Origin: an uncultured Rickettsiales bacterium | GTDB taxonomy: Bacteria > Myxococcota_A > UBA796 > UBA9615 | Length of the DNA stretch: 64,000 bases | NCBI GenBank assembly: GCA_964344575.1 | Contig: CAYFOA010000005.1 | Span: forward strand, 15,105 to 79,104 | Direction of reading: 5' to 3' | Shown: positions 38,286 through 56,200 of the stretch, one piece after another | How positions within the stretch are numbered: the first letter of the stretch is position 1 | How the letters are laid out: every line of letters begins with the position of its first letter | Position numbers and translations under genes: made by a program | Notes under the pieces: generated by a model | Told to the model about the DNA's origin: nothing | Seen by the model: the letters and a program-made list of their open reading frames with translations, nothing else | The model's database searches: none

Positions 38286-38694
38286 CGGCGATCCAGACGT
38301 AGCCCCAGTTGACGAACACCGCCGCCACGACCGCCCCCCGCAGCGTCCACGCCTCCCGCTCCGACCCCGTCCGGAGCCGCACCGCGGGGACGCCCGCGAA
38401 CCGCCGCAGGGCCAGGTAGGCGACGAACAGGATCGCGCTCAGCGCCAGCGCCGCCCCCAGCGGGTTCTGGAGGAAGGCGGCGACGCCGTGCCCGTGCATC
38501 ACGTGGATCCAGGACCGCGTCATCCCGCACGCGACGCACGGGTACCCCGTCCCGAGCTTGAACCCGCACATCGACGGCAGCGCGTGGAAGGGGACGAACC
38601 GCGCCGCTACCAGCGCCGCCCCCGCGATCAGGGCCAGCGACCCCGTCAGCCAGGGATCCGCCGGCGGGGCGTCGCGGTCCAGCTCGAGGCGCAT
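38275..38694 (-). CDS. DUF2752 domain membrane protein
   Basis: CPxCGxTR-type motif (YPCVACGMTRSW) characteristic of DUF2752. 139 aa. 1-nt start/stop overlap with the upstream gene. Confidence 0.6.
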   Translation of the reverse strand: MRLELDRDAPPADPWLTGSLALIAGAALVAARFVPFHALPSMCGFKLGTGYPCVACGMTRSWIHVMHGHGVAAFLQNPLGAALALSAILFVAYLALRRFAGVPAVRLRTGSEREAWTLRGAVVAAVFVNWGYVWIADVA

Positions 38695-39530
38695 CAGTAG
38701 CCGGAGCCGCTCATCAGCCCCGCCGCGACGAACCCGAACACCACCGCGCCGGCGCAGACGCAGAAGATCGTCACCGCCAGCGGCCACAGCACCGCGATCG
38801 CGCCCTTCCACCCGGCGGTCCGGTGGATCCCGATGACCCCGAGGATGAGGAGGACGTACAGCCACAGGCCGGCGACGAGCTGCCCGCAGATCGGGATCAC
38901 GCCCCACGCGAGGATGCACCAGCCGTAGTACGTCGCCTTGAGGGTCCCCTTGAGGCCGTGCTCGTTGCCGCCGACGACCATCAGCCCGAGGTGGATCAGG
39001 AGCGCCGCCACCGTCGCCCACAACAGCGACTGCAGCGGGAACGTCAGCGCCTGGAAGCCGGACCGGAGGATCGACGGCTCGATCGACCGGAGGTACATCT
39101 GCGTGACCACGTGGTCCTCGCCGAGGAGGTCGATCACCGGCTGCGGATCCTGGGGGAAGACCGCCTGCGAGCCGTAGTTGATGCCGGCGGCGACGAAGCC
39201 GGCCGGGATCAGGACGATCAGCAGCAGGATGATCGCGTCCTTGATCCGCTCGGTCGGGTGGAGGGACTCGAAGAACGAGACGGGGTGGAGGGTCAGCTCC
39301 ATCATCGTCTGCCCGAGGGCGGCGAAGAGGCCGAGCTCGGCGCGCCGCTCCCAGGCGCAGAGCTGCTGCTCGCTGACGCGCCCCTCCTCGACGCACGTCC
39401 GGCAGATGACCTCGCCGTCCATCGTGCCGAGGCACTCGCCGCATCCGTAGTTGCCGCAGTGGGAGCACGTGCCGACCGACGGGACGCCGTCGTGGACGGC
39501 ACACATCGCCGTGGGGTGGGCTGGATCCAT
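38694..39530 (-). CDS. Yip1-family membrane protein with an N-terminal zinc-ribbon (paralog)
   Basis: CAVHDGVPSVGTCSHCGNYGCGECLG...CRTC followed by a Yip1-like TM domain. Confidence 0.65.
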   Translation of the reverse strand: MDPAHPTAMCAVHDGVPSVGTCSHCGNYGCGECLGTMDGEVICRTCVEEGRVSEQQLCAWERRAELGLFAALGQTMMELTLHPVSFFESLHPTERIKDAIILLLIVLIPAGFVAAGINYGSQAVFPQDPQPVIDLLGEDHVVTQMYLRSIEPSILRSGFQALTFPLQSLLWATVAALLIHLGLMVVGGNEHGLKGTLKATYYGWCILAWGVIPICGQLVAGLWLYVLLILGVIGIHRTAGWKGAIAVLWPLAVTIFCVCAGAVVFGFVAAGLMSGSGY

Positions 39531-39559
39531 GGCGCGCAGCCTACGATAATCGGAGGCTC

Positions 39560-41113
39560 GTGTTCAGCCGGACCGCCATCGCCGTCGCGGCCGCCGCGTC
39601 CCTCGCGGGGTGCGCGGCGGGGCCCGCGAGCGTGCAGACCGAGGCGGTCTCGGAGAACGGCCTCGTCCGCTTCGAGTTCGCCACCGAGGGGAAGAACAGC
39701 TTCACCGTCGCGGGCGCCTCCTGCGACGCCCCCCGGGGCGGGACCTGCGTCGTCGAGATCTCGATGGCCGACCTCCAGGCGGGGTGGAACGAGATCCCCA
39801 TCGAGACGCGCCGCCGCACCGGTGAGGAGGAGAAGCTGACGGCGCGGGTGTTCGTCGGCGAGGACGCGTTCCGGCGGACCTGCGAGGTGCGCCAGTCGGG
39901 CGGCCCCGACCCCCGCACCCTCCAGTACGAGATCAAGTGCGAGTTCGAGGACGGCTTCGCGGGCGAGCTCTTCGGGGAGGCGATGCCCGGCGGGCTGGCC
40001 ATCGTGAAGGCGGCCGAGGTCCGGGTGGACGAGAACCCCGCCAACGCCGGCGTCCTCCGCCCGCTCGTGGTCGGCGACCTCCCCATCGTCGTCACGAACC
40101 GCGCCGGCGGTCGCTGGGAACGCCCCCTGAAGGTCGTCGTCCCGCTGCCCCTGGTGCAGCTGTCGGTCACGGGCTGGCAGGACCCCTGGTACGAGGACGT
40201 CCTGCCGCTCCGCATCCGCGCCGAAGCGGGGGCGGAGATCCTGGTGGACGGGGAGCCGGTCCGGCCCAAGCGGGACGGCGCATCGTTCGTCCGCGAGGTG
40301 AAGATCAAGCCCGGACCGAACCGGATCCGCGTGGAGGCGAGGCTCCCCGACCGGGTCGACGCCGTCGTCGACCTGTCCATCCGCGGCAAGGCCCCCGACA
40401 CGCCGCTGTACATCGACGAGCCGGCCGTCGCCGAGCTGACGACGTCCGACCACTTCGTCCGCATCCGCGGCCGCACCATCCCCGAGGCGCGCGTCTACCT
40501 CGCCAACCGGCCCGCCGACATCGCCCGCGACGGCAGCTTCGAGTTCGTCGTCCCGCTGGACGAGGGGGACAACGAGATCGAGGTCCTCGCCGTCGTCGAC
40601 CCCGGCCCCCGGATCCAGGCCCGGCCCGCCACCAAGCGGAGCTTCGCGGTGCGCGTCGAGGGCGACGACGAGCAGCGGATCGAGCAGCGGCAGTACGCGG
40701 CGTCCGACCTGGAGGCGGCCAACGCCGAGGTCCTCGCCGACCTGGGGCGCGACCCCTGGGGCCACGTCGGCGCCAAGGTGACCTTCCCGATGGTGCTCCG
40801 GGACATGGCCACGTCGCTCGTCAAGGGGGGCTGCGAGGCCCGCATCGAGGGGGACGCGTGCACGCACGAGGTCTCCCAGGAGGTGCGCGTCGGGTTCGAG
40901 ACCCGCGAGGCGAAGGCGTGCGACGGCGAGGAGCTCCCCGCCGTCATCGAGCTCGACTCCTGCCCCGACGTCGCCGAGGGGCAGCGCGTCATCGTCGTCG
41001 GCAAGGTGCTCGGCGGGCTCGGCGGCCGCGTCGGCCAGTTCACCGTCGAGCGGCCCCGCATCCGGGCGTCCGAGCTGCGCGACGCGCCCTGGATCGTCGA
41101 GGCGCGGCGCTGA
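39560..41113 (+). CDS. Hypothetical lipoprotein, translationally coupled to the pseudokinase-FGE gene
   Basis: Lipobox AASLAGC. 517 aa with no recognisable catalytic motif. Its stop overlaps the next ATG. Confidence 0.6.
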   Translation: MFSRTAIAVAAAASLAGCAAGPASVQTEAVSENGLVRFEFATEGKNSFTVAGASCDAPRGGTCVVEISMADLQAGWNEIPIETRRRTGEEEKLTARVFVGEDAFRRTCEVRQSGGPDPRTLQYEIKCEFEDGFAGELFGEAMPGGLAIVKAAEVRVDENPANAGVLRPLVVGDLPIVVTNRAGGRWERPLKVVVPLPLVQLSVTGWQDPWYEDVLPLRIRAEAGAEILVDGEPVRPKRDGASFVREVKIKPGPNRIRVEARLPDRVDAVVDLSIRGKAPDTPLYIDEPAVAELTTSDHFVRIRGRTIPEARVYLANRPADIARDGSFEFVVPLDEGDNEIEVLAVVDPGPRIQARPATKRSFAVRVEGDDEQRIEQRQYAASDLEAANAEVLADLGRDPWGHVGAKVTFPMVLRDMATSLVKGGCEARIEGDACTHEVSQEVRVGFETREAKACDGEELPAVIELDSCPDVAEGQRVIVVGKVLGGLGGRVGQFTVERPRIRASELRDAPWIVEARR

Positions 41114-42741
41114 TGGAGATCAAGGGCTACCAGCTCAACGAGATCGCCGGCGACGGGCGCACCGGGCGCGTCTACCAGGCGACGCGGAAGGCCGACGGCG
41201 CCAGCGTCGCGTTCCGCCAGGTCAAGCCCCGCCTCGCCAAGGAGCCGGGCGTGTCGGAGTCGATCTGCCGGCTCAAGCAGCAGTGCGCGGGGCTCCGGAA
41301 CGTCGTCATCGTCCCCGTGGTCGAGTCCTTCGAGGTGGAGGGGGCGATCTGCGTGGTCGAGCCCTGGGTGGAGGGGACGACGCTGCGGAAGCGGCTGAGC
41401 GAGGGGGCGCTCCCCCGGGAGGACGTCCTCACCCTCGGCGTCGAGGTCTGCGAGGCCCTCGAGGAGCTGCACGAGGCGGGGATCGTCCACGGGGACGTCT
41501 CCCCCTCGAACATCATGCTCACGGCGCGGGGGGCGCGGCTCACGGGGATCGGGGTGGCGGCGCGGACGAACCGGCGGCGCAAGAGCAGCACGATGTTCGG
41601 CGACCCCTACGACGCCCCCGAGATGCGGAACGCGGCGGGCGCCTCGCCGAGCACGGACATCTACGCCCTGGCGGCGTGCCTCGACGCGGCCCTGAACGGC
41701 GAACAGGACGGCACCGGCGGCTTCCAGCTGACCAGCGGGCAGACCGAGGAAGACGAGCTGATCCAGGTCATCGCCGAGGCGCTCGCGTCGCACCCGAGCA
41801 TGCGGCCGCCGACGGTGCGGGCGTTCAAGCGGGCGCTGATGGGCGTCCGGATCGGGGCCTCGCCGCCGCCGCGGAAGACGCAGGACGCGCCCGCGGACTG
41901 GGACGAGGAGGCGCTGGAGCGGGTGACGGGGTCGCAGCGGGCGGCCCCCCCGGCCGAGAAGATCCCGCCCTGGGCGCCCAAGGCGGCGGCGGCGGTGGTC
42001 GGCGTGGCGGCGCTGGTGGGGCTGGGGGTCTGGATCAAGGGCATCCTCCCCGACGTCCCCGACGGCATGGTCGCGGTGGCCCGGGGAGCGACGGCGGTGG
42101 GCGGCGAGGAGGGGCCGTCGGACGAGCGGCCGGGGTTCGTGTGGACGCACCCGCGGTTCTTCCTCGACCGGACCGAGGTGACGGTGGACGCGTACGAGGC
42201 GTGCGTCGCCGACGGCGGCTGCAGCGGGGTGGGGACGCGGCTGGAGCGGCGGCAGGACGACCTCCGGGAGCCGGTCGTGGGGGTGACGTGGCTGCAGGCC
42301 AACGCGTACTGCGCGTGGGCGGGGAAGCGGCTGCCGTCGGAGAACGAGTGGGAGGCGTCGGCGGCGGCGTTCGGCGTCGGCGCGGGCGAGCCGGACTGCG
42401 GCAACGCGTGGTTCGGGGCGTGGGCGACGGGCCCCTGCGGGACGCCCGGGCTGGTGGCGGCGCCCCAGGCGATCTTCCCCGACGAGGGCGACCCCGACGC
42501 CCCCGTCCACCTCGCGGGCAACGTCTGGGAGTTCACGAACAGCGACTACCTCCCCAACCGCCGCCCCGGCACGGGCGACCTCGCGCCGGCGGGGGGATCG
42601 GTGCTGAAGGTCATCAAGGGGGGCGCGTTCTCGACGACGGGGGAGGAGCTGACGCGGGCGGCGCGGCTGGGGGTGGAGATGGACCACTGGGCGGCGGACG
42701 TGGGGTTCCGGTGCGCGATGGACGCGGAGCGGCAGAAGTGA
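41113..42741 (+). CDS. Degenerate Ser/Thr protein kinase (predicted pseudokinase) fused via a TM segment to an FGE-sulfatase (SUMF1-like) domain
   Basis: Gly-loop GDGRTGRVY is present, but the beta3 Lys is replaced (VAFR), the catalytic loop is HGDVSPSN instead of HRDLKPxN, and DFG is replaced by GIG. The C-terminal FGE fold carries motifs such as VTWLQANAYCAWAGKRLPSENEWE and GNVWEFT. Confidence 0.7.
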   Translation: MEIKGYQLNEIAGDGRTGRVYQATRKADGASVAFRQVKPRLAKEPGVSESICRLKQQCAGLRNVVIVPVVESFEVEGAICVVEPWVEGTTLRKRLSEGALPREDVLTLGVEVCEALEELHEAGIVHGDVSPSNIMLTARGARLTGIGVAARTNRRRKSSTMFGDPYDAPEMRNAAGASPSTDIYALAACLDAALNGEQDGTGGFQLTSGQTEEDELIQVIAEALASHPSMRPPTVRAFKRALMGVRIGASPPPRKTQDAPADWDEEALERVTGSQRAAPPAEKIPPWAPKAAAAVVGVAALVGLGVWIKGILPDVPDGMVAVARGATAVGGEEGPSDERPGFVWTHPRFFLDRTEVTVDAYEACVADGGCSGVGTRLERRQDDLREPVVGVTWLQANAYCAWAGKRLPSENEWEASAAAFGVGAGEPDCGNAWFGAWATGPCGTPGLVAAPQAIFPDEGDPDAPVHLAGNVWEFTNSDYLPNRRPGTGDLAPAGGSVLKVIKGGAFSTTGEELTRAARLGVEMDHWAADVGFRCAMDAERQK

Positions 42742-43496
42742 TGGCGACGACCGACGGACGGCGGGTCTTCGTGACGGGCGGCAGCGGCGCGATCGGGCGC
42801 GCGCTGGCGGTGGCGTTCGCGCGGCAGGGGGCGACGGTCGCGTTCTCCTACTTCATGGGGCACGACGGGATGGAGGCGACGAGCGCGGCCATCCGCGAGG
42901 CGGGCGGCGAGCCGCGGGCCGTGCAGTGCAACCTGCGCGACCGGTCCGGCGCGAAGGAGGCGGCCGAGGGCGCGCTCGAGGCGCTCGGCGGCGGCGTCGA
43001 CGTCTTCGTCTCCAACGCGGCCACGGGCGTCCTCAAGCCGCTGGCCGGCGTCAGCCCCAAGAGCTGGCAGGGGGTGCTCCAGGTCAACGCGGGCGCGTTC
43101 CTGGAGATGACGAACCTCCTCGCCCCGACGATGGGCGACGGCGGTCGCGTCCTCGCCCTGACGTCGGCGGGGTCCGTCCGCGCGCTGGAGCATTACGGCG
43201 CGATCGGCGCGTCCAAGGCGGCGCTGGAGTCGCTGGTCCGGCACTTCGCGATGGAGCTCGGCCCGCGCGGCATCACGGTCAACGCGATCCGGCCCGGCGT
43301 CGTCGACACGCCCGCCCTGGAGTACTTCCCCAACCGCGAGCAGATGCTCCACATCGCCCGCCTGCGGACCCCTGTCGGCCGCATCGCGACGCCGGAGGAC
43401 GTGGCCGACGTGGCCCTCTTCCTGGCGTCCGACGGGGCGAAGATGATCAACGGCGAGACGATCACGGTCGACGGGGGGTATTCGATCCTCGCCTGA
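42741..43496 (+). CDS. Short-chain dehydrogenase/reductase (SDR)
   Basis: TGGSGAIGRA Rossmann motif and the YGAIGASKAA catalytic Tyr-x3-Lys. 1-nt overlap with the upstream stop. Confidence 0.85.
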   Translation: MATTDGRRVFVTGGSGAIGRALAVAFARQGATVAFSYFMGHDGMEATSAAIREAGGEPRAVQCNLRDRSGAKEAAEGALEALGGGVDVFVSNAATGVLKPLAGVSPKSWQGVLQVNAGAFLEMTNLLAPTMGDGGRVLALTSAGSVRALEHYGAIGASKAALESLVRHFAMELGPRGITVNAIRPGVVDTPALEYFPNREQMLHIARLRTPVGRIATPEDVADVALFLASDGAKMINGETITVDGGYSILA

Positions 43497-43513
43497 CCGG
43501 ACGCGGTGATAGC

Positions 43514-46150
43514 GTGCCCCGCGTGAGAGTCGCCCCCCTCGTCGTCGCCTCCTCCGCTGTCGCCCTGCTGCTGTCGTCGTGCCCCACGACCGAGCCGCCG
43601 CCGCCCGTCGGTCCGTCGCTCTTCGCGGAGGGCTGCCCCGTCCCCGGACAAGCCCTCGCCCGCGTCATCGGCGTCGCCGGCCCGCGCCCCGGCGCGGCCG
43701 CCACGGGGACGAAGGGGGACCTGCTGCTGGCCAACGACCGGGCCGCCTTCGTCGTGACCGACACGGGGCCGCAGTCGACGTACTGGTACTACCCCGGCGT
43801 CCTCGCCGACGCGACGACGGTGGCCGACTGCGTGCCCGCGCCGGACAAGCTGGACGAGCTCGGCTACGTCTTCGTCGTCGCCGACGTGTTCGAGTTCGAG
43901 CAGTCGATCCTGCGGGCGTTCGAGGCGGAGACGGTGGAGGTCGTGAACGACGGCTCCGACGGCGGGGCGGCGGTCGTCCGGGCGCGGGGGTCCGACTCGA
44001 TCCACTGGCTCGTCGAGCACACGCTCATCAAGGAGGCGGCGGACAGCGGGGGTCGGGACTTCAGCGAGCCGTACGGCGTCGAGATCACGATCGACTACGT
44101 CCTCGAGCCGGACAGCTCCGTGCTCTTCATGGACGTCGGCGTGCTGAACCTCAGCTCGGGTCAGGTCCAGCTCGTCGACGCCGCGCTGATGCAGCACGGG
44201 CACACGATGGACGAGTTCAGCTACAGCAGCGGCCCGATCTCGGTCGCCAGCCTGAACCTCGACGCGGGCCTGCCGTGGATCCTGGCGTCCGACGGCGCGG
44301 GCGCCTACGCGCTCAACATGAGCGACGCCAACCTCGCCACCGTGACGTTCAGCGGCGTGCAGACGGGGGTCGACGTCAACCAGCTCAACGACGGGTTCAC
44401 GCTCGGCATCGGGGAGCGCAAGACGCTGCGGCGCTACCTCGCGGTGGGGCCCGGGGACGGCACCGCCGCCATCGAGGCGCTGCTCACCGCCAACCCCGTG
44501 CCCCTGCGCGACCAGCCGGCCACGGCGGCGCGGATCCGGGGTTCGCTCCAGGAGGCGGACGGGTCGCCGGCCGCGGGCACGGTGCTGGTGCAGGCCCGCG
44601 CCGGCGACGCCTCGTGGGGGAACCTCTACCGGGCGGTCGCGGGCGAGGACGGCGCCTTCACCGTCGCCGTCCCCGAGCTCGACGAGCCGTGGTCCTACCG
44701 GCTGCTCGCGGAGGGCCCGGGGAGGGACGCGGCGGCGCCCGTGTCCGTCGATCCGGGAGACTCCGGGGTCACGCTCACGCTGGAGCCGCGGGGCAACGTC
44801 GCGTACGCGATCACCGCGGACGGCGAGCCGTCCCCCGCGCGGCTGGCGTTCCTCCGCGACGACGGCAAGCGGTTCGACTTCTGGGAGCACGGCGAGGGCC
44901 GCCTCGACCTCCCCCCGGGGACGTGGGAGTGGACGGCCACGCGGGGGTACGAGTTCACCCCGGATCGGGGGACGGTGACGGTGCCGGCGGGCGGCGAGGC
45001 GGCGGTCGAGGCGTCGCTGGCGCGGGCGTTCGAGACCGACGGCTGGATCTCGGTCGACACCCACGTCCACACGATGGACAGCCCCGACAGCCGGACGGAC
45101 GTCGGCGACCAGATGAAGGGCGCGGCGGCGCACGGGCTGGACGTCGTCATCCACACCGAGCACGAGCACATCGTGGACCGGCGGTACGTCCCCGCGGAGG
45201 TGGGGGTCGACGGGTGGTCGACGAGCGTGATCGGGGAGGAGGTCACCAGCGTCGCCGTCGAGCACATGACGATGTTTCCGGTCGAGCCCGACGGCAGCCC
45301 CCGGGGCGGCTACGTCGAGTGGTACGGGATGGACATGGAGGAGCTCTTCGCGGCGATGCGGGCGCGGAGCGACGGCGGCGTCAACCTGCTCAACCACCCC
45401 GGCTGGATGAACGACATCGGCTGGGACCGGGTCGCCGCCGAGCCCACCGTCGACCCCACGCTGCTGGGCTTCACGGAGGACGACGCGCTCTGGTCGTGGG
45501 ACCTGGACGGCGTCGAGGTGATGAACGGCCACAGCAGCCCGTTCGCGGACGGCAACGGCCGGTTCGACGACTGGATGAGCATGGTCAACGCGGGCCACCG
45601 GGTGATCGGGGTCGGCTGCAGCGACGCCCACGGCCGCGAGGTGGGCTTCCCCCGGACGTACGTGACGGCGCCGTCGGACGACGTGACGGAGCTGGACACG
45701 GACGCGCTCACCGACTCGTTCCAGAGCGGCCGCGCGATGGCCAGCGCGGGTGCGTACGCCCAGGTCACCATCGACGGCGCGGGCCCCGGTGAGCTGGTCG
45801 CGGACGACGACGGCGCGGTCACGGTCTCGATCGCGGTGGAGGCCCTCGCGGAGGTGAACGTCACCCACGCGGTGGTCTTCGTGAACTGCGACCAGGCGGC
45901 GTCGATCGCGGCGACGGATCCCGACGCGGTCCTCAAGCTGGACGCGACGGTGACGGTCCCGGTGGACGGCGACAGCAGCGTGGTCGTCGCGGCGTTCGGC
46001 GAAGGCGGCATGCCCTTCGGCCTCCGCCAGTACGACGCCACCCGCACCCCCCGCGTCCTCGTCAACCCGATCTACGTCGACTTCGACGGCGACGGCGCCT
46101 TCTCAGCCCCCGGCGGCCGGGAGTGCAGCTACGACCTCGCCGCCCCCTGA
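43514..46150 (+). CDS. Lipoprotein with a PHP-type metal-dependent phosphoesterase domain (CehA/McbA-like)
   Basis: Signal VPRVRVAPLVVASSAVALLLSSC. PHP His clusters (ISVDTHVHTMDSPDS, HGLDVVIHTEHEH, GVGCSDAHG). The start is hand-placed, +/- 3 codons. Confidence 0.65.
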   Translation: MPRVRVAPLVVASSAVALLLSSCPTTEPPPPVGPSLFAEGCPVPGQALARVIGVAGPRPGAAATGTKGDLLLANDRAAFVVTDTGPQSTYWYYPGVLADATTVADCVPAPDKLDELGYVFVVADVFEFEQSILRAFEAETVEVVNDGSDGGAAVVRARGSDSIHWLVEHTLIKEAADSGGRDFSEPYGVEITIDYVLEPDSSVLFMDVGVLNLSSGQVQLVDAALMQHGHTMDEFSYSSGPISVASLNLDAGLPWILASDGAGAYALNMSDANLATVTFSGVQTGVDVNQLNDGFTLGIGERKTLRRYLAVGPGDGTAAIEALLTANPVPLRDQPATAARIRGSLQEADGSPAAGTVLVQARAGDASWGNLYRAVAGEDGAFTVAVPELDEPWSYRLLAEGPGRDAAAPVSVDPGDSGVTLTLEPRGNVAYAITADGEPSPARLAFLRDDGKRFDFWEHGEGRLDLPPGTWEWTATRGYEFTPDRGTVTVPAGGEAAVEASLARAFETDGWISVDTHVHTMDSPDSRTDVGDQMKGAAAHGLDVVIHTEHEHIVDRRYVPAEVGVDGWSTSVIGEEVTSVAVEHMTMFPVEPDGSPRGGYVEWYGMDMEELFAAMRARSDGGVNLLNHPGWMNDIGWDRVAAEPTVDPTLLGFTEDDALWSWDLDGVEVMNGHSSPFADGNGRFDDWMSMVNAGHRVIGVGCSDAHGREVGFPRTYVTAPSDDVTELDTDALTDSFQSGRAMASAGAYAQVTIDGAGPGELVADDDGAVTVSIAVEALAEVNVTHAVVFVNCDQAASIAATDPDAVLKLDATVTVPVDGDSSVVVAAFGEGGMPFGLRQYDATRTPRVLVNPIYVDFDGDGAFSAPGGRECSYDLAAP

Positions 46151-47730
46151 GCGCGGACGCGGCGGCGGAGCCCGACGAGCCACCCCGCCGCGAGGAGGAC
46201 CGGCACGCTCGATGACGAGCCGGACGTCTCGCAGGCGCAGCCCTCGCCCGCCAGCTCGCCGCCGCCGGACGCTTGGTCGGTGTCGTCGTCGTCCCCGAGG
46301 TCGTCGTCGTCGGCGTCGTCATCGTCCCCGAAGTCGTCGTCTCCGAGGTCGTCGTCGTCGGTGACGTCGTCGTCGTCGTCGGCGTCGTCGTCGTCGTCGT
46401 CCACGGGGGGACAGCCCGGCAGATCCGGTGAGCCGTCGCCGTCCAGGTCGCCGCACCCCAGGAAGACGAACACGGCCCCCCGGTTGTCGCCGCCGAAGGG
46501 AAAGCCGGGATCACTCGCCACGACGTCGTCGAATCCGTCTCCGTTGACGTCCCCGGACACCATCCTCAGCCCGAGCGATTCCGCCTTCAGTCCGGTCGAC
46601 CAGGTCAGCGCCGCGGAGTCGGGGAGGGCGATGGAGCCCGTTCCGAGGAACACATGCACCTCGTCGGGACCGATCGAGGCGGTCACGAGATCCTGGTGGC
46701 CGTCACCGTTGAGGTCCCCCAGCCGAACGGAGGCCCCGACTTGCTGGCCGCCCTCGCCCTGATGGCTCCACGACGGCTCGTACGAGGGCCCGTCGGGGCC
46801 GCCCCCCCAGGCCCTCACGATGCCGTGGTCCTCACCTACGAAGTCCGGGTTGGTGTGGAGCGGGTTGCCCATCACGATGTCGTCGAACCCGTCGCCGTCG
46901 AGGTCCCCGAGGGCTGCTCCCCAAGCCGTCAAAGGGGGCCCATCCGCCCCGCAGACCGCCCACAGCGGCGTACCCCCCAGCGGTCCGTCGGGCTCAGCGC
47001 CGGCGTATGCGCGCGTGCAGGTTCTGGTGGCCACGAAGTCGTCGAGGCCGTCACCATTCAGGTCCCCTCCTGGCGTGACGAACTCCGTCAGAATCGCGAG
47101 TTCGCCGTCGGACAGCTCGGCGACCGGAGCCTGTTGGAGGCCGACGAGGGCGCCTCCGAGGTACACCTGCGCCGAGCCTCCCGATCTGGAGAGCACCGCG
47201 TCGTCCCATCCGTCGCCGTTGAGATCGCCGGGGCCCGCGACTTCCAAGCCCTGGCCCTCCTGGGAGGCTGCCCAAGACCACTCGCTTTGCAGACCTTCGG
47301 CGCTGCCGAGGTAGAGAACGACCCCCTCGAGCGCACCGGTTCCGGGGGCGCCGATCAACAGGTCGTCGAACCCGTCGTCGTTGGGATCGCCGACTGAGGC
47401 CAGGGACGCGCTGAACATGGCGTTGGCCGAGCCGCCGGTGGCCTCCCATCCGGCGGCAAGGGGCAGCTCGTCGGCACCGTAGAAGACGAGGACGCGCCCC
47501 TCGACGACCAATCCATTGCCTTGCCAGTGGTGCGTGCCGATCGCCCAGTCGTCGAACCCGTCGCCGTCGAAGTCGCCGATCGCCAACTCGGACCCGAGCT
47601 GTTCGTCCGCGTCGTCGCCTTCGAGATACCAGTCTTGGCCGTTCAAGGTCCCCGCGGACACGGTCGGAGAGAGACGATGGTGAGGATCGCTGCCGCCGAG
47701 GTCGGGACGAGGGGGAGACACTCCACGCAC
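46129..47730 (-). CDS. FG-GAP repeat protein with a poly-Asp tract and a MYXO-CTERM-like sorting tail. The N-terminus is unresolved.
   Basis: FG-GAP repeats (GDFDGDGFDD, GDLNGDGWDD...), a poly-Asp linker and a C-terminal GEGCACETSG...VPVLLAAGWLVGLRRR. No signal peptide is found in the body frame. An ATG overlapping the upstream stop (ATGA) at 47807 opens a different frame that stops after 54 codons. Confidence 0.5.
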   Translation of the reverse strand: MRGVSPPRPDLGGSDPHHRLSPTVSAGTLNGQDWYLEGDDADEQLGSELAIGDFDGDGFDDWAIGTHHWQGNGLVVEGRVLVFYGADELPLAAGWEATGGSANAMFSASLASVGDPNDDGFDDLLIGAPGTGALEGVVLYLGSAEGLQSEWSWAASQEGQGLEVAGPGDLNGDGWDDAVLSRSGGSAQVYLGGALVGLQQAPVAELSDGELAILTEFVTPGGDLNGDGLDDFVATRTCTRAYAGAEPDGPLGGTPLWAVCGADGPPLTAWGAALGDLDGDGFDDIVMGNPLHTNPDFVGEDHGIVRAWGGGPDGPSYEPSWSHQGEGGQQVGASVRLGDLNGDGHQDLVTASIGPDEVHVFLGTGSIALPDSAALTWSTGLKAESLGLRMVSGDVNGDGFDDVVASDPGFPFGGDNRGAVFVFLGCGDLDGDGSPDLPGCPPVDDDDDDADDDDDVTDDDDLGDDDFGDDDDADDDDLGDDDDTDQASGGGELAGEGCACETSGSSSSVPVLLAAGWLVGLRRRVRAQGAARS

Positions 47731-47803
47731 GCCGACAACGCGCGACCCCTCCCAACAGCCCGGCTGTCGCGGCTGCTGTCCATCCGGCGCTCCACCCGCT
47801 GGG

Positions 47804-49515
47804 TCATGTCCGCTCTGACGCTCTGTCGCGTTGCCGGCGGAGACAGAGCAGGGGAAGGAGCACCACCGGGAACGCGACGGCTCCGTCACCGCCGCAGGTG
47901 CAGCCGCCGCCGCTGGCCCCGTCGACGACCCCGTCGCAATCGTCGTCGAGACCATTCTCGATCTCCTCTGCTCCGGGGTAGATGGCCGAGGATTGGTCGT
48001 TGCAGTCGACGGACGCGTCGTAGCCGTCTCCGTCGCAATCGGTGCAGTCGTCATCGTCGTCCGTGCCGTCGTCGTCATCCGTGGCGTCGTCGTCGTCCGT
48101 GGCGTCGTCGTCGTCCGTGGCGTCGTCGTCGTCCGCCGCATCGTCGTCGTCTGCCGTGTCGTCGTCGTCTCCAGAGGCCGGCTCGCAGTCGGTCGAGTCC
48201 GGGACTCCGTCGCCATCGTCATCGGCGCAGGCGAACCAGAGGAAGACCGCCCCGGCGTCCTCGGCGACGGCGTCGTGCCTGGGCGCCCCGACGGCGAGGT
48301 CGGCGAAGCCGTCGCCGTTGACGTCGCTGACGATGGAGACCGCGTCGCCGAATCGCGCCGAGTCGGACCCCTCCGTGTCGGCCCAGGCGTCTGTCGCCGA
48401 CGGGCCCGAGGGAGACCCCAGGACGAGGAAGGCCCGCCCATGGTTGTCGGTGGGTGCGGACATCGACGGATCGCCGACGAGGATGTCCGCGTAGCCGTCG
48501 CCGTTCACGTCCGCGACCGACACGGCGAAACCGAAGTCGTCGGAGCCCACGCCGCCGGCGATCACGGCGTCCGCGGCCTGCGACGGTCCCGCGGTCGAGC
48601 CGTAGTGGACGTAGACCGCGCCCTGGGCATCGGGCGGATCGACGTAGTCCGGTGCGCCGATCACCACGTCGCTGTACCCGTCACCGTTGACGTCCCCCCC
48701 GTCCACGCTCAGGCCGAACGTCCACTGGGGTGCCGGGCCCTCGATCGTGGCGACGGGCTCCGACTCGAGGCCGGAGGCCGAGCCCAGGTAGACCTCCACC
48801 TTGCCCTGGTTCTCGACCACGCCATCCCAGTTCGGCGCGCCGTAGGCGACGTCGTCGTAGCCGTCGCCGTTCACGTCTCCGAGTCCGGCCAGGCTGTAGG
48901 GGATCTGGGCCAACTCCTGGTCACCCACGACGATCCAGCCGGGGAGGAGGCTCAGGGTGGTCGCCGGGTCACCATGGAACAGGTAGACCCGCCCCTCCTG
49001 TTCGTAGTCACCCGTGTAGGTGCGGGCGCCTACGAGGACGTCGTCGTAGCCGTCGCCGTCGACGTCGCCGGCGCCGGCTACGACGAGTCCGAACTGCTCC
49101 TCGTCCGACTGGCCGTCGAAGGCCCACGCGGCCGGGTCGACGAGTCCGTCTGTGCTGCCGCGGTAGAGGAAGGCTTCTCCGTCGTCGTCGTTCGCAGTGC
49201 GGGCTCCTACGAGCAGATCGTCGAACCCGTCCCCATCGACGTCCCCCGCACCATCGAGCGAATACCCGAAGAGGCCGTTGGAGTACTGCTCCCAGTCCGG
49301 CTCCTCCGCCGGTCCCGTCGTCGAACCCAGGAACAGCCGGGCCGGCCCGCGTCCGCTACGGGTTGACCTACCTCCCGACTTTCGTGCGGGCCCTCGAAGG
49401 ACCAGTCCGGGGTCGAACCCGCGACGGCCAGGGCTGCGGTCTCCAAGCTGGTCTCGGTGCAGGAGATCGTCCCAAGCGCGGCCACGAGCACCACTGGAAT
49501 CGAGATTCGGCTCAT
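47804..49515 (-). CDS. FG-GAP repeat lipoprotein with a poly-Asp tract and MYXO-CTERM tail. There is an apparent frameshift between the signal peptide and the body (possible pseudogene or sequence error).
   Basis: Signal-peptide ORF 49207..49515 (MSRISIPVVLVAALGTISC...) is in one frame. The FG-GAP body (DGAGDVDGDGFDD ... GGGCTCGGDGAVAFPVVLLPLLCLRRQ) is in another frame from about 49366 down to the stop at 47804. Confidence 0.5.
48062..48169 (-). repeat. Six tandem copies of an 18-bp GTC-rich unit (cgtggcgtcgtcgtcgtc) encoding a (T/A)DDDDA linker
   Basis: Three perfect units and three variant units read directly from the sequence. A similar but less regular GTC tract lies at about 46270..46410 in the neighbouring paralog. 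Confidence 0.55.
49292..49410 (-). repeat. Imperfect ~92-nt direct duplication flanked by 9-nt repeats (CCGGACTGG and GGGTTCGAC), enclosing a GC-rich hairpin (49344..49392), at the frame junction of the FG-GAP gene
   Basis: Two copies of the GST..PDW coding segment lie 110 nt apart, which is not a multiple of 3. The stem ggcccgc/gcgggcc encloses a 33-nt loop. Confidence 0.45.
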
Positions 49516-49559
49516 CTCGCCCTCCCTCTCGCGAGCCTACCCCCGCCGCCGCGTCGGAG

Positions 49560-49636
49560 GAATTCGACAATCTCACTTCTGTCGAAGTAAATCGACATAG
49601 TGTCTTTTGTCGAATACCATCGACAAGATGTCGACG
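49560..49636 (+). promoter_or_regulatory. Three TCGACA/TGTCGA inverted-repeat sites (two with 10-nt spacers) in a locally AT-rich promoter/5' region of the AAA ATPase gene
   Basis: TTCGACA-N10-TGTCGAA at 49563..49586, TCGACA-N10-TGTCGA at 49592..49613, and TCGACA-N3-TGTCGA at 49620..49634. Confidence 0.4.
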
Positions 49637-50800
49637 CCCCTCCTCGATGTGGTCCGCGACTGGAGCTGGTGGGACCGGCCGCGGCGGGCCACTGTGCCCC
49701 GGGGCGTCGAGCTCCCCGCGGCGCTGAGCGAGACGCTCTGCCTCGTCGTTCAGGGCGTGCGCCGGTGTGGAAAGTCGACGTTGCTGGGACAGCTCGTGGA
49801 CCGCTACGGGCTCGATCCCCTGCGCTGCGCGTTCCTCAACTTCGAGGACCCGCGCCTCGTCGCGCGGCTCGATTGGACGGTGCTGGACGAGCTCGTGACC
49901 GCGTTCCGCGCGCGCCACGACGACGACCAGCCGCTCTACTTCTTCCTCGACGAGATCCAGCATGTCGACGGGTGGCAGCGGTGGCTGCGCGCCCAGCTCG
50001 ACCGCCCGCGTGGCCATGTCTTCACGATCACGGGCTCGAACGCCCACCTGCTGAGCGGGGAGCTGTCCACGTCCCTGACGGGCCGCCACCTGGTGGTCGA
50101 GCTGTTCCCCTTCGATCTGGACGAGCTCCGGACCGCGGATCCGGCCGCCGATCTCGCCGCCTACCTGGCCCACGGCGGATTCCCCGAGCCGGTGGGGAGC
50201 CCCGACCGCGACCGCCTCCTGAGGCAGTACTTCGCGGACATCGTCGAGCGCGATGTCCGGGAGCGCGCCGGCGCCCGCTCGGCGCTGCCGGTCCGGCAGG
50301 TCGTGCAGATGGTGTTCGAGGCGGCCGGCTCCGAGCTGAGCCTCCGTCGCGTGGCGGCGGCGACGGGCCTCGCGATCGAGACGGCGGGCGCCTACCTCGC
50401 CGCGGCGGAGTCGGCGTACGTCGTCCTGAGCTGCCCCTACTTCGCCTTCTCCGAGCGCCGCCGGGCGAGCCGCAACAAGAAGTACTACCCGGTCGACACG
50501 GGGCTGCGCCGCGTCTGCGTCACCCGGACGGGCGAGGACCGGGGCAAGTCCCTGGAGTGCGCCACCCACCTCGCGCTGCGCCGCCGCTTCGGCCCGGTGT
50601 TCTACTGGCGCGAGCGCGGCGAAGTGGACTTCGTCGTGCACCACGAGGGCCGCATCATCCCCGTCCAGGTGTGCTCGGACGGCCCCCAGGAGCGGCACCA
50701 CCGGGCGATCGAGTCCTTCTACGAGCGCTTCCCACAGGCCGAGGAGACGGTCTGGGTCAGCTTCGAGACGTTCGAAGAGGAGCTGGCGAGGCTGGACTGA
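49607..50800 (+). CDS. AAA-family ATPase with a C-terminal DUF4143-like domain (COG1373-type)
   Basis: Walker A GVRRCGKST and Walker B YFFLDEIQ. The more likely start is the second ATG at 49628 (MSTPLLDVV), downstream of the palindromes. Confidence 0.75.
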   Translation: MSNTIDKMSTPLLDVVRDWSWWDRPRRATVPRGVELPAALSETLCLVVQGVRRCGKSTLLGQLVDRYGLDPLRCAFLNFEDPRLVARLDWTVLDELVTAFRARHDDDQPLYFFLDEIQHVDGWQRWLRAQLDRPRGHVFTITGSNAHLLSGELSTSLTGRHLVVELFPFDLDELRTADPAADLAAYLAHGGFPEPVGSPDRDRLLRQYFADIVERDVRERAGARSALPVRQVVQMVFEAAGSELSLRRVAAATGLAIETAGAYLAAAESAYVVLSCPYFAFSERRRASRNKKYYPVDTGLRRVCVTRTGEDRGKSLECATHLALRRRFGPVFYWRERGEVDFVVHHEGRIIPVQVCSDGPQERHHRAIESFYERFPQAEETVWVSFETFEEELARLD

Positions 50801-50809
50801 CGCCGCCCC

Positions 50810-52351
50810 CTAGGTGTCGTACCACTCCGGCTTCACGAGGTTCGTGAACGTCTCGTGCTGCTTGATGGGGTTGATGCGCTGCTTGACCGCGTCGAACGTC
50901 ACCCCGAGCGCCACCTTGAGCCACCACTGGTACATCTGGCGCTTGTACTTCTCGGGGCTGAGCAGCCCCTTCATCAGCCACTTCGGGTTCACGAACTTGC
51001 GGTTGATGTCGTACAGCGCGCGGGAGATCTCGTCCCGCGTCATGTAGTCGCTCTCCATCATCGGAGTCATCCAGTCGAACTCCGTGAAGTCGTCCAGCGT
51101 GATCCAGCCGTTCTCCATCGCCTCGTCGAAGAGCGGCGTCCCCGGCACCGGGGTGATGGGGTGGAACGCGGGGTAGTCGACGTTCAGCTCCTTGGCCAGC
51201 TCCGCCTGGCGGAACATCGACTCCCGGGTCTCGTACTTCGTGCCGACGATGAACGTCGCCTGCTTGAAGATCTGGGGGTACTTGTCGAGGATGCGGAACG
51301 TCTCCCGCAGCTGGTCGTTGTTGTAGAAGCCCTTGTTGAAGTCCTTGAGGCGCTCGTCCTCGGCCCGCTCCACCCCGATGCAGAGGTGCCGCAGCCCCGC
51401 GGCGACCAGCTTCTCCATGATCCCGCGCTTCTCGTCGCGGATGATGCAGTCGCTCCGCATGAACGCGAACCAGTCGATGTCCATGCCGGAGCGGATGATC
51501 TCCTCGGCGAACTGGTCGTTCCAGCGGGCGTCGATGTTCCAGGACTCGTCGACCCACACGAACGACCGCTTGCCGTGCTTGTAGTAGAGCTCGTGGATCT
51601 CGGCGATCGTCGAGTCCACCGACTTCGTCCGCCACCGCGGGCGGAGGCTGATGTAGCCGTCCTCGTCCTCGTCCCGGTGGGCCATCTGCGTCCACCACAC
51701 GCAGAAGCTGCACGACGCCGTGCAGCCGCGGCTGTGGTGGATGGTCGCGCCGCCGGGGCTGAAGCTCAGCGACGACGTGCCGTACAGCTCCATCGGTACG
51801 AGGTCGTAGGCCGGCATGGGGAGCTCGTCGAGGTCCTCGATGAGGTGCCGCGCCCGCGTCTTGATGAACTGCTTGTCGTCGCCCTCGCCCTCGACGTAGA
51901 CGATGCCCGCGACCGAGCTGTAGTCGGGCTTCGCCTTGCCGATCTCCTCGACCAGCGCCCGCAGCGTGTACTCGCCCTCCGCGCAGACGCAGAAGTCGAT
52001 GGGGTTCTCGCCCATGTACTTGTTGAAGAGGTTCGTGAAGTGCGCCCCGCCGACGACGCGCTTGGCGCGGGGGATGACGTCTGCGGCCATGTTGATGACG
52101 CGCATCGCCTCGTGGGCGTACAGGGCGTGGTTCTCGCCGACGCAGAGGACGTCGGGGTCCCGCTCGCGCATCGCGTTCTCGAGGGAGCGCCAGCCCATCT
52201 TCAGGGGCATGCAGTCGTAGACGGAGACGTCGTGGCCGGCCTCCCGGAGGACCGCCGAGAGGTACACCAGCGACTGCGGCACGAGGTAGTTGTCGCCCTC
52301 GCTGACGAACGGCCAGTAGTACCGCGGGCTGAAGACGAACATGACCTTCAT
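50810..52351 (-). CDS. B12-binding radical SAM protein
   Basis: N-terminal cobalamin-binding-like domain (MKVMFVFSPRYYW...), a CTASCSFC radical SAM cluster and a C-terminal extension. GC is lower than its surroundings. Confidence 0.8.
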   Translation of the reverse strand: MKVMFVFSPRYYWPFVSEGDNYLVPQSLVYLSAVLREAGHDVSVYDCMPLKMGWRSLENAMRERDPDVLCVGENHALYAHEAMRVINMAADVIPRAKRVVGGAHFTNLFNKYMGENPIDFCVCAEGEYTLRALVEEIGKAKPDYSSVAGIVYVEGEGDDKQFIKTRARHLIEDLDELPMPAYDLVPMELYGTSSLSFSPGGATIHHSRGCTASCSFCVWWTQMAHRDEDEDGYISLRPRWRTKSVDSTIAEIHELYYKHGKRSFVWVDESWNIDARWNDQFAEEIIRSGMDIDWFAFMRSDCIIRDEKRGIMEKLVAAGLRHLCIGVERAEDERLKDFNKGFYNNDQLRETFRILDKYPQIFKQATFIVGTKYETRESMFRQAELAKELNVDYPAFHPITPVPGTPLFDEAMENGWITLDDFTEFDWMTPMMESDYMTRDEISRALYDINRKFVNPKWLMKGLLSPEKYKRQMYQWWLKVALGVTFDAVKQRINPIKQHETFTNLVKPEWYDT

Positions 52352-52358
52352 CGTTCGC

Positions 52359-53177
52359 TCATCCCTCCTTGCGGCCCACGGCGAGGTGGGCGCGCGGCAG
52401 CGGCGCGAGGTCGGGGTCGTCCCCGAGCCGGCGCTCCAGGTCCAGCAGGGCATCGGCGTAGTCGGCGTCCGGCAGGCGGTCCGGATCGACGCACCCCATC
52501 AAGGGTCCGTCGAGCACCCGGAACAACCCCCTCGATCGCACGACGTCCAGCCCGGCGCCGAGCAGTATAGCCGCCAGTTCGCCGGCCGCGAGGAGCCTGA
52601 CCCAGCGGTCCCCGGGGACCTCGATGATGCGGCGACGTACGGCGTTCTCGACCTGTTCTGGGGACAGCCCCGAGGGGTCCGCGAGGAGGCCGCCGGGCCA
52701 GGCCTCGACCGACGCGATCAGGTGCCCGCCGGGTGCGAGCGTCGCGGCGAGGCGCTTCGCCGTGGCGGCCGCGTCGTCGAGGTAGCAGAGGAGCTCCATG
52801 GCGAGGACGAGGTCGTAGCCTCCGCCGAGGTCGGCGACGTCGACGTCCCCCTCCCGGAGCTCCACCCGGTCGCCCACCCCGGCGGCGGCGACGTGCCGGC
52901 GGGCGGCGTCGAGGGACGGCGCGCAGGCGTCGATGGCGACGACGTGGTGCCCGGCCCGCGCCAGGGGCACCGCCCACCGCCCGATCCCGCAGGCCGCGTC
53001 GAGCACCCGGAGCGGCCGGTCGGCCTCCAGCAGGTCCCCGATCGCGTCCCCATACAGCCGCGTCTGCAGCGCCTTGAACGCCCGTCCAGGGGACTCCGGA
53101 TCGAGGAAGTCCATCCACTCGGGGTACTCGGCCCAGCCCTTGTGCAGGCCGGCGAGGTTCCAGGCGACCGCGCTCAC
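52359..53177 (-). CDS. Class I SAM-dependent methyltransferase
   Basis: Motif I VLDAACGIGRWA plus acidic post-I and motif II residues. 272 aa. Confidence 0.75.
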   Translation of the reverse strand: MSAVAWNLAGLHKGWAEYPEWMDFLDPESPGRAFKALQTRLYGDAIGDLLEADRPLRVLDAACGIGRWAVPLARAGHHVVAIDACAPSLDAARRHVAAAGVGDRVELREGDVDVADLGGGYDLVLAMELLCYLDDAAATAKRLAATLAPGGHLIASVEAWPGGLLADPSGLSPEQVENAVRRRIIEVPGDRWVRLLAAGELAAILLGAGLDVVRSRGLFRVLDGPLMGCVDPDRLPDADYADALLDLERRLGDDPDLAPLPRAHLAVGRKEG

Positions 53178-53211
53178 GCCGCCACTGTAGACGCAGACGG
53201 GCGGGCTCGGC

Positions 53212-56200
53212 TCAGGGCAGGGGGTTGACGAAGACGTTGACCCCGTCGACCCCGGAGGTGCTCAGCCCGCTGCACGTACCCGCCGTCGTGGCGACCAGGT
53301 CGAGCCGGCCGTCGCCGTCGAGGTCCGCCGCGCCCACCTCCCAGCCGGCCGTCGCCCACGCGTCCGTCGCCTCGAAGGACCAGCCGTCGCCGATCGCGCT
53401 GAGGCCGCCGCCGCCCGCGTAGTACGCGACGATCTCGGCGCCGGGGAGGACGAACGCCTTGCCGATCGGGCCGCACGACCGGGCGAACCCGTGGAGCAGG
53501 TCGGGGACGCCGTCCCCGTCGACGTCGGCCGCCCGCGGCTGGCGGTAGGGGATGGGGACGCCCTCGTACTGGATGTCCGCGCCGGCCCCGAAGATCACCA
53601 CCGGGTTGGCGACGAGGTAGGCGCCGGAGTGGAGCTGCATCGAGGTGCTGCTCCTCCCCCCGAGGAGCACTTCGTCGTGGCCGTCGCCGTTCCAGTCGGG
53701 CAGGCCGCCGACGACCCAGCCGGCCTGGGCCCCGCCCGCTCCCGTGACCTGGACGTCGGACGCGGAGGCGGCGAGGCCTCCGTTCGCCGCCATGGTGGCG
53801 TCGAAGACGATGAACGCGTCGCCGTCCGCGAACTCGGGGAAGGTGGTCCCCGGGGCGCCCGCGACGAGGTCTGTGAGCCCGCTCCCGTCGACGTCCGCGC
53901 CGGAGAGCGCGCCGGTCCACGCCCCGCTCCGCGAGCCGGCGCCGAGGAAGCCGTCGGCGTCCTCGCCCCACAGCGCGAACCAGGCGTCCGCCTCGTCCAG
54001 CGCGCCGCCGGCGAGCAGGTCCGTGCCGTCGAAGACGAACGCGCTGCCCCCGTTGGCGGCCAGGGGGGAGTGCGGTCCGCCGAGGGCGAGGTCGGGCAGG
54101 CCGTCGCCGGTCGCGTCGGGGAGGGCGGCGACCGACCGGAACCCGTCGCCCCCCGCGGTGTGGACGATCGAGACCGCCGCCGGCAGGCCCGCGGGATCGG
54201 TGACGACGTCGACCCCGAACACGATCGTGGCGTCGCCCCCGACGAACGCGAGGTCGTCGCGGCCGTCGCCGTCGAGGTCGCCGAGCGCGACGGCCGCCGT
54301 CTCCTCCACCGCCAGCACGGCGTCGGCGGCGAAGTGCTCCCCCAGGTCGAGCGGTCCGAACCAGACCTCGCCGTCGATCACCACGTCGTCGAAGCCGTCC
54401 CCGTTGACGTCCGCGCCGGCGACGAGCGACTGGCCCCACACGCCGCTCCCGGGGAAGCGGAGCGTCGCCGCGGTGACGACGAACGCGTCGCCGCCGTCGC
54501 AGTTCGCGTCGACCCCGTCCGTCCGTCCCGCCGCCGTGGCGTCGTCCCACGAGCCGGGGAAGATCGCGGGGTCGAGGTCGTCGCAGTCCCCCTGGCAGGG
54601 GAACCAGCCGTCGCCGTCGCCGTCGGCGTCGACGCCGTCGTCCACGACGCCGTCGCAGTCGTTGTCGACGAGGTCGCACAGCTCCGGCTCGCCGGGCGAC
54701 GTGGAGTCGACCGCGTCGTCGCAGTCGCCGCCCCCCAGCACCTCCGGGGCGGTCCCCGACCACGGCTCGCACTCCACCCAGCCGTCCGCATCGTCGTCCT
54801 CCTCGTCCCCGGGGACCACACCGTCGCAGTCCTCGTCGAGGCCGTCGCACACCTCGACCGCGCCGGGGTGGAAGGCGGCGTCGAGGTCGTCGCAGTCGGC
54901 GCACGCGATGTAGCCGTCGCCGTCGCCGTCCGCCTCGTCGGCGGGGACGACGCCGTCGCAGTCGGAGTCGACGCCGTCGCAGGCCTCGCCCCCGCCGGGG
55001 AGCACGGCCGGGTTGAAGTCGGAGCAGTCTCCCTCGCACGGCGAGACCCCGTCGGCGTCGAGGTCGGCGGTGTTCAGGAGCGGGTCGCCGTCGTCGCAGT
55101 CGCCGGCGCAGGAGGTCTCGCCGTCGCCGTCGGCGTCGAGGGAGGTCAGGGCGGGGTCGGTGTCGTCGCAGTCGGAGCAGGCGGGGTCGCCGTCGCCGTC
55201 GTCGTCCGCCTCGTCGGGGGGGAGCGTCCCGTCGCAGTCGGTGTCGAGGCCGTCGCACAGCTCGGCGGGGGCGGCGGGGGAGGCGCCGGGGTCGTCGTCG
55301 GCGCAGTCGCCGTCGCACACCCGGTACCCGTCGCCGTCGGCGTCGTCGCAGTCGCCCGCGGGGCCGCAGGCGGGGGCCTCGTCGTCGCAGTCCTCGAACT
55401 CCTGGGCGAGGCCGTCGCCGTCGGCGTCGACGCCGTCGGTCCCGTCGCAGTTCTGGTCGACCCCGTCGGCGTACCCGTCGGCGGCGGCGGGGTAGGCGGC
55501 CGCGTCGAGATCGTCGCAGTCCGGGCTGCACGGACCGTCGCCGGGGCAGGCCGCGCCGCAGGTGTCGTAGCCATCGCCGTCCACGTCCCGGGAGTCGACG
55601 CCATCGTCGCTGTCGTCGCAGTCCGAGCAGGCGAAGTCCCCGTCGGCGTCGGCGTCCTCCTCGCCGCCGGCGGCCGCGGTGGCGGGGTCGCAGTCGTCGT
55701 CGGCGCCGTTGCACAGCTCGGGGGCGTCGGGCGCGGCATCGGCGCGGGCGTCGTCGCAGTCGCCGTCGCAGATCCGCCACCCGTCGCCGTCCGCGTCGGC
55801 CTCGTCGGCGGGGGTCTCGGCATTGCAGTCGTTGTCGAGGCCGTCGCAGATCTCGTCGTGCCCGGGGTGCCGCGTGGGCTCGGCGTCGTCGCAGTCGAGG
55901 TCGCACACCCGGTAGTCGTCCCCGTCCGCGTCGGCGCAGTCGCCGGGGGCGAAGCAGCCCGAGTGGGCGTCGTCGCAGTCCGAGCCGCCGCACAGGGGGT
56001 GGTCGTTGAGGACGCCGTCGCCGTCCACGTCGCAGCGGACGTCGCCGCCGGCGCAGTCGTTGTCGATCCCGTCGTCGGCGACCTCCTCGGCGTCGGGGTG
56101 GGTGGCGGCGTCGTCATCCCGACAGTCCTCGCCGCCGGACGCCTCCGAGGCGAAGGTGTCGCCGTCGGCGTCGACGCCGTCGGCTCCGTCGCAGTTCTGG

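Follow-up and report, generated by a model that had tools for sequence, protein, structure and literature searches.

Displaced N-termini in two adjacent FG-GAP/MYXO-CTERM genes of a GC-rich bacterial contig: probable frameshift lesions

Proteins with a MYXO-CTERM tail are exported by the Sec pathway via an N-terminal signal peptide, lipidated on an invariant Cys, and, after cleavage by myxosortase, transferred to the cell surface; in M. xanthus, an N-terminal signal peptide is present in 35 of 35 of them (PMC11980579). Two adjacent genes of this general design, here called A and B, are found on contig CAYFOA010000005.1 of GenBank assembly GCA_964344575.1, from an uncultured bacterium assigned by GTDB to Myxococcota_A. 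The stretch analyzed, referred to below as the window, comprises 64,000 nt (positions 15,105 to 79,104 of the contig) with a GC content of 73.6%. The genes lie head to tail on its minus strand, and each includes a signal peptide, an FG-GAP propeller, a poly-Asp linker, and a MYXO-CTERM-type tail, with the signal out of frame with the body. It is probable that both carry real frameshift lesions and are recently inactivated pseudogenes or null alleles.

The architecture itself is already known, because a database protein (P0167; 537 aa, annotated as "MYXO-CTERM domain-containing protein" by the Joint Genome Institute, JGI) shows the same layout with an intact N-terminus: a signal peptide, seven FG-GAP blades with DxDxDG Ca loops, a poly-Asp linker (SGDDDDTGDDDTGDDDAGDDD), a Cys motif, a hydrophobic helix, and an Arg-rich tail. 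A and B differ from such FG-GAP/MYXO-CTERM relatives in their displaced signals and, for A, in the lack of the core of blade 1. At only 31–46% identity to A and B, these relatives are not regarded as orthologues. Two other kinds of system offer comparison. Bacterial pseudogenes with frameshifts typically have, as here, a single small indel at a G/C or dinucleotide run in an otherwise intact gene, and the gene A lesion is likewise reproduced in independent assemblies; what differs is that two adjacent paralogues are affected, each with one lesion near its 5′ end, and that polarity from A to B is possible. Programmed −1 frameshifting, as in dnaX, IS3-family transposases, and the phage tail chaperones G/GT, also fuses overlapping open reading frames (ORFs) by a −1 shift, but A and B have neither a functional heptamer at the junction nor a stimulatory structure, and the shift site suggested by homology is away from the one heptamer present.

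The features of the two genes are listed below, all on the minus strand. The frame labels f0, f1, and f2 give the remainder, modulo 3, of the window position of each codon's first base.

49520..49526, minus: Shine-Dalgarno-like GGGAGGG of gene A, 5–6 nt upstream of the ATG at 49515 (by sequence reading)
49207..49515, minus: gene A N-terminal ORF, frame f0, ATG start, TAG stop at 49207
49338..49352, minus: gene A frame junction, f0 to f1, ACGCGGGCCGGCCCG, a G/C run
47804..49345, minus: gene A body, frame f1, TGA stop, six complete FG-GAP blades
48047..48172, minus: gene A poly-Asp tract
47918..48046, minus: gene A MopE-type Cys motif (PF11617, 45 bits)
47807..47911, minus: gene A MYXO-CTERM-like tail
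47643..47807, minus: gene B N-terminal ORF, frame f2, 54 codons, its ATG overlapping the gene A stop
47667..47674, minus: gene B frame junction, TCTCTCTC, (TC)4, placed by codon log-odds
46129..~47670, minus: gene B body, frame f0, seven complete FG-GAP blades
46276..46404, minus: gene B poly-Asp tract
46132..46248, minus: gene B MYXO-CTERM tail

An initial annotation of this DNA had noted that the N-terminal segments are in a different frame from the FG-GAP bodies, and direct reading of the sequence bears this out for both genes (A, f0 against f1; B, f2 against f0). In A, the GGGAGGG preceding the ATG identifies the f0 start as the true or ancestral one. The 102-codon f0 frame opens with MSRISIPVVLVAALGTISC (49515..49459), which fits the PROSITE-type lipobox pattern with the cysteine at position 19, so that the lipoprotein signal proposed for this ORF stands, as does its displacement from the body. 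After the signal, f0 holds the first strand of blade 1 and an FG-like motif (PDWSFEG, 49410..49390, and EVGQPVADAGR, 49374..49342); past ~49342 it is out-of-frame junk as far as the TAG at 49207. FG-GAP homology and spacing favor f0 through PDWSFEG…EVGQPVADAG(R) and then f1 from (G)PARLFLGSTTGPAEEPDWEQ, for a net shift of −1/+2, and one G added at the junction yields DAGRARLFLGS. A codon-usage log-odds model, with 30 other genes of the window as its training set, also prefers f0 down to ~49400.

The gene A junction is more than a shift of frame. In an alignment of the 14 blades of A and B, the blade crossing it has 38 aa, vs. 51–64 aa in the other 13, and the GDxNGDGxxDxxxG Ca loop and strand core are absent precisely at the junction: some 23–26 residues (AGDVNGDGxxDVxVGA…E) have been lost. 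When A is aligned with gene B and 17 database homologues, all of which have a complete first blade, it alone shows a 26-column gap there. Gene A accordingly has six Ca-loop motifs, vs. seven in B and, counted by eye, seven in each of the homologues P0010, P0089, and P0167; in terms of the seven-bladed ring, B has seven blades, and A has six complete ones and a 38-aa remnant in which both the Ca loop and strand 2 are missing. An AlphaFold2 model of A with its frame restored (predicted local distance difference test score 85.4, predicted template modeling score 0.86) is a propeller of the integrin-alpha type, with integrins alpha5, alphaV, and alphaIIb as the best Foldseek matches in the PDB (E ~1e-20), in which the blade with the missing core is represented by only two short, low-confidence strands. 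A one-base correction of A would still give no normal seven-bladed protein, because the core of blade 1 would still be missing. As to history, the DNA fits one event as well as two, since GGG CCG GCC (f1) and GGC CGG (G)CC (f0) are equally good matches to the paralogous blades: either a single deletion of 3n+1 nt occurred, or the blade first lost its core (or was short natively) and GGCCGG(G)CCCGG then lost 1 nt.

The missing core also accounts for what had been described as an offset duplication of 110 nt. The sequence similarity comes down to a 14-nt match at 86% (49315–49328 and 49407–49420) plus the PDW codons; it reflects the usual FG-GAP repeat motif, whose spacing is 109 nt here rather than ~170–190 nt because the core of the blade is gone. 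The first two PDW motifs of A are 109 nt apart, vs. at least 168 nt between later ones.

In gene B, an ATG at 47807 overlapping the upstream stop had been reported to open a 54-codon frame out of register with the body. This is confirmed: the ORF is in f2 and the body in f0, requiring again a net shift of −1/+2. The f2 ORF encodes a charged N-region and then a hydrophobic stretch, LPLVPTSAAAILTIV (47717..47673). The codon model prefers f2 from the ATG to ~47690 and f0 from ~47680, with a log-odds of +16.7 for f2 followed by f0 at (TC)4 vs. −16.3 for f0 alone. If one TC is removed at (TC)4 (or 1 nt added), …AAAILTIVS in f2 joins PTVSAGTLNGQDWYLEG in f0; with the TC removed, the end of f2, …LPLVPTSAAAILTIVS, runs directly into it. 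The public protein entry for gene B (P0121, 510 aa) begins only at the GTG at 47661 and has neither a hydrophobic N-terminus nor a signal peptide. A reading of the B N-terminus as a three-frame chimera, MTQRVERR (f2) + WTAAATAGLLGGVA (f1) + LSAC (f2) + GVSPP… (f0), was tried and rejected: three indels are needed, and the log-odds is −12.1 vs. +16.7. This reading, at 47782..47727 on the minus strand, does make a perfect lipobox and lipoprotein signal, probably as a coincidence of GC-rich sequence. At its other end, gene B overlaps the convergent plus-strand gene 43514..46150 by 22 nt (46129..46150).

The bodies themselves are readily recognized. With PF01839 (cutoff 22.1 bits), A scores 141.5 bits over six stretches (E = 5.5e-42) and B 114.9 bits over five (E = 1.2e-33). 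Both tails consist of a Cys motif, a hydrophobic helix, and an Arg-rich end (GGGCTCGG..VVLLPLLCLRRQR in A, GEGCACE..VLLAAGWLVGLRRRVR in B). Against TIGR03382 (cutoff 15.85), B is above threshold at 18.7 bits and A just below it at 15.8; against TIGR03901 (cutoff 20), B scores 18.6 bits. The A stop and B start share ATGA in this co-oriented pair, which suggests, from the sequence, that their translation is coupled. G+C content at third codon positions (GC3) is ~0.87 in both bodies (0.86–0.88), vs. 0.95–0.99 in neighboring genes. Pseudogene decay was considered as the source of this low value and rejected, as it would predict many more indels and stops than one lesion per gene; an intrinsic cause, whether foreign origin or low expression, is more likely. 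Parts of both bodies are labelled non-coding by GC3-based segmentation.

Neither gene has a signal peptide in frame with its body: in A, the signal occupies f0 and the body f1; in B, the sole N-terminal hydrophobic stretch occupies f2 and the body f0. As encoded, A would yield a lipoprotein precursor truncated at 102 residues, with no signal-bearing start from which the propeller could be translated. Because MYXO-CTERM proteins must first pass through Sec by way of an N-terminal signal peptide, both genes are, judging from their sequence, non-functional as encoded for their evident role. The window does include a CPBP/Rce1-like intramembrane protease (495..1253, plus strand; PF02517, 33 bits), and myxosortase belongs to the same enzyme class; against the archaeomyxosortase MrtA model this protease scores 55.8 bits (cutoff 200), and it is not identified as a sortase.

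At the DNA level, the frame breaks could be errors of sequencing or assembly, with indels in GC-rich or repetitive tracts and true genes that are continuous; error in GC-rich tracts was among the possibilities raised initially, and each junction does fall in a short simple repeat, a G/C run in A and (TC)4 in B. Exact-protein look-ups of neighboring genes yielded independent sequence data in the form of six contigs; these come from three Illumina metagenome runs that were assembled separately (ERR2281800, ERR2281804, and ERR2281805; PRJEB17505; MEGAHIT k127). They match the window at ≥99.9%, with few single-nucleotide polymorphisms (SNPs) and no gaps, over 38063..46390 and 48060..55553: 15.8 kb with zero indels. 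Contigs from ERR2281804 and ERR2281805 span 48349..53879 and 48060..55553 with 0 gaps and 2–5 SNPs. The gene A junction is unchanged in two independent assemblies from different runs (contigs L024/L026 and L025), and because of this the A lesion is real DNA sequence in this population. Nor would repairing it by one base restore the core of blade 1. For B, error is unlikely given 0 indels in 15.8 kb; that its lesion too is real would follow from this rate and from the clean state of all other gene boundaries checked in the window. In almost all of the other 40-odd coding segments, a stop falls within a few bases of the frame transition and the next start is nearby, and the handful of exceptions look like two genes in one frame; the lesions are therefore specific to A and B. 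Artefact is an improbable explanation overall. In its favor, the B junction has no independent coverage, and assemblies of this locus break in nearby poly-Asp repeats.

The contig ends at 48060 and 46390 are both inside poly-Asp coding repeats, and that at 48349 lies on the upstream side of the gene A tract, ~180 nt away. It appears that assemblies are interrupted by the acidic linkers, whose length may vary in the population. Because of these breaks, the piece from 46390 to 48060 holds only cut genes. Gene A has four SNPs (two synonymous, two non-synonymous; two of them at a contig end within the repeat), too few for a ratio of non-synonymous to synonymous substitution rates (dN/dS). Contig L025 has mismatches at 48066 and 48077, right at its end.

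Among the four explanations offered by the initial annotation (pseudogenisation, a small insertion, sequencing error, and translational recoding), pseudogenisation is favored by the missing blade core, the unchanged A junction in independent assemblies, and the loss of the export signals. A small insertion could apply to B, as a 2-nt gain of TC at (TC)4, but A lost sequence rather than gaining it. On the pseudogene reading, one DNA lesion at a short simple repeat in each gene would have shifted the start and export signal out of the frame of the body. In A, with the lesion at ~49340–49350, translation from the real ATG would end at 49207 after 102 codons. In B, a 2-nt gain or a 1-nt loss at (TC)4 would part the ATG ORF from the body. 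Gene A may have been affected first: premature termination there would uncouple B, polarity would probably silence it, and B, once silenced, could then drift and gain a frameshift of its own. Inactivation would be recent, because there is only one lesion per gene.

Several points weigh against this interpretation. The B junction is in none of the six independent contigs, because the poly-Asp repeats interrupt these assemblies, at 48060 and 46390; look-ups of exact products (the neighboring lipoprotein with two choices of start, P0121, the 54-aa ORF, and a guessed contig-edge fragment of A) produced no contig containing it. With one visible lesion per gene, both bodies are open for more than 500 codons and their Ca-loop motifs are intact, so that either inactivation was recent or the lesions are tolerated. 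Both lesions are in the first ~10% of their gene, a coincidence of about 1 in 100 for two independent random events. The restored N-terminus of B departs from a textbook signal peptide in its long charged N-region, its lack of a lipobox, and its maximum 12-residue Kyte-Doolittle value of 1.9. Finally, the ancestral in-frame state is one that we infer rather than observe, because the searched databases contain no close orthologue. Among 5.8 billion proteins, there were only repeat-family matches at ≤46% (A) and ≤36% (B), plus the self-match P0121; a scan of genome contigs with the neighboring 882-aa gene yielded no related locus (best identity ≤29%); and a 24-mer from the B junction had 0 matches in JGI metagenomes. 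No in-frame orthologue of A or B was thus found in protein, genome-contig, or JGI metagenome searches.

At the RNA level, a programmed −1 ribosomal frameshift could conceivably let translation pass from the signal-peptide ORF into the propeller body in A and B alike, which need an identical net shift (−1/+2). The overlap of gene A contains one in-phase X_XXY_YYZ heptamer, G_GGC_CCG at 49393, adjoining a 7-bp stem, and a hairpin at 49344..49392 had been singled out initially. The stem does exist (GGCCCGC/GCGGGCC, 49392–49386 and 49350–49344), but the 121-nt region gains no stability over chance: 144 of 200 shuffled versions were equally or more stable (z = +0.51). The stem also overlaps the heptamer itself, and there is no stimulatory structure 5–9 nt downstream of the heptamer. 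By this shuffle test and by the ordinary FG-GAP periodicity, respectively, both the hairpin and the 110-nt duplication were rejected as functional elements. About 0.9 heptamers are expected by chance per 103 GC-rich codons (a back-of-envelope estimate), and slippery heptamers in which YYY is CCC are poor shifters. The heptamer is ~45 nt upstream of the likely junction, and homology and codon usage hold f0 for those 15 codons past it: the log-odds is +14.8 with the switch at ~49342 vs. +2.4 with the switch at the heptamer. The gene B overlap has no in-phase heptamer. No homopolymer of ≥6 nt that might support transcriptional slippage was found, the longest repeats being (TC)4, G5, and C5, and a search of Rfam returned no family, only far-sub-threshold miRNA matches on the poly-Asp repeats. 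Even a recoded product would be without the core of blade 1. With no usable slippery site, stimulatory structure, or Rfam element, and with codon statistics placing the frame change elsewhere, the proposal of translational recoding is not sustained, and it is considered extremely unlikely. A phase-variable contingency locus, in which reversible slipped-strand indels at 5′ repeats switch export ON and OFF and the sampled population is OFF, is only marginally more credible, and still very unlikely. Surface-exposed proteins with 5′-proximal lesions at simple repeats are the classical layout of contingency genes, and A and B would be OFF together. The long 5′ simple-sequence repeat of such genes is lacking here, however; (TC)4 and G3/C3 runs are far below the repeat lengths that give high switching rates. 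Moreover, the assembled A allele is the same in two samples, and the missing blade core is irreversible. It is similarly very doubtful that the frame breaks act more generally as a switch, through low-level recoding or reversible slippage at the G/C run and (TC)4, controlling the export of two propeller adhesins. If this were true, it would be a contingency-type ON/OFF mechanism undescribed for this protein class or lineage, adding a new regulatory layer to MYXO-CTERM surface display.

At the protein level, the genes could instead be functional as annotated, with translation of B starting at the GTG at 47661, that of A starting in f1 either internally or upstream, and products that remain in the cytoplasm or are exported independently of a signal. 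Gene callers do predict P0121 and, on the metagenome contigs, f1 ORFs of 409 and 505 aa, and both bodies are long and open, with well-preserved FG-GAP motifs. Long frames can however arise unselected in DNA of 70% GC, an example being a 511-aa antisense ORF at 47831..49366, and the called N-termini have no hydrophobic segment. A Ca-binding propeller, a Cys-rich motif, and a MYXO-CTERM tail make sense only outside the cytoplasm, and signal peptides are found in all characterised MYXO-CTERM proteins. A strong Shine-Dalgarno sequence, ATG, and lipobox just upstream of A, out of frame, also speak against this reading, which seems about as improbable as artefact.

The probable recent inactivation of A and B, as frameshift pseudogenes of a two-gene operon, is an ordinary finding, chiefly useful as a correction to annotation: P0121 and the f1 gene A ORFs represent truncated or spurious products, and should not be counted as functional surface adhesins. 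At ~70% GC or more, an open frame of 500 codons is no evidence of function. The combination of blade counting and comparison of independent assemblies can distinguish real lesions from artefacts without access to reads.

Two other FG-GAP genes in the window appear not to share these defects. A third paralogue (53212..56376, minus strand), of 1054 aa, is intact, with a canonical lipoprotein signal (MPGRVLAVLLPLWLAGC), ten MopE-type Cys motifs, and FG-GAP repeats; it has no MYXO-CTERM tail, and its GC3 is 0.976, unlike A and B. An FG-GAP-type protein with FG-GAP_3 and ASPIC/UnbV domains (14487..16091, plus strand) is also apparently intact. The region adjoining gene A (49628..53177) has a local GC of ~0.62, below the window average, and encodes a divergent AAA_14/DUF4143 ATPase, a B12-binding radical SAM enzyme, and a class I methyltransferase; the radical SAM enzyme gene has a GC3 of 0.99, with unusually low GC at the first and second codon positions. 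In the lipoprotein gene 43514..46150, four non-synonymous SNPs fall within 10 nt (43677..43686; A→D, G→A, P→T, R→L). They are common to two or three metagenome contigs from different runs, and look like a multi-nucleotide variant in an N-terminal linker.

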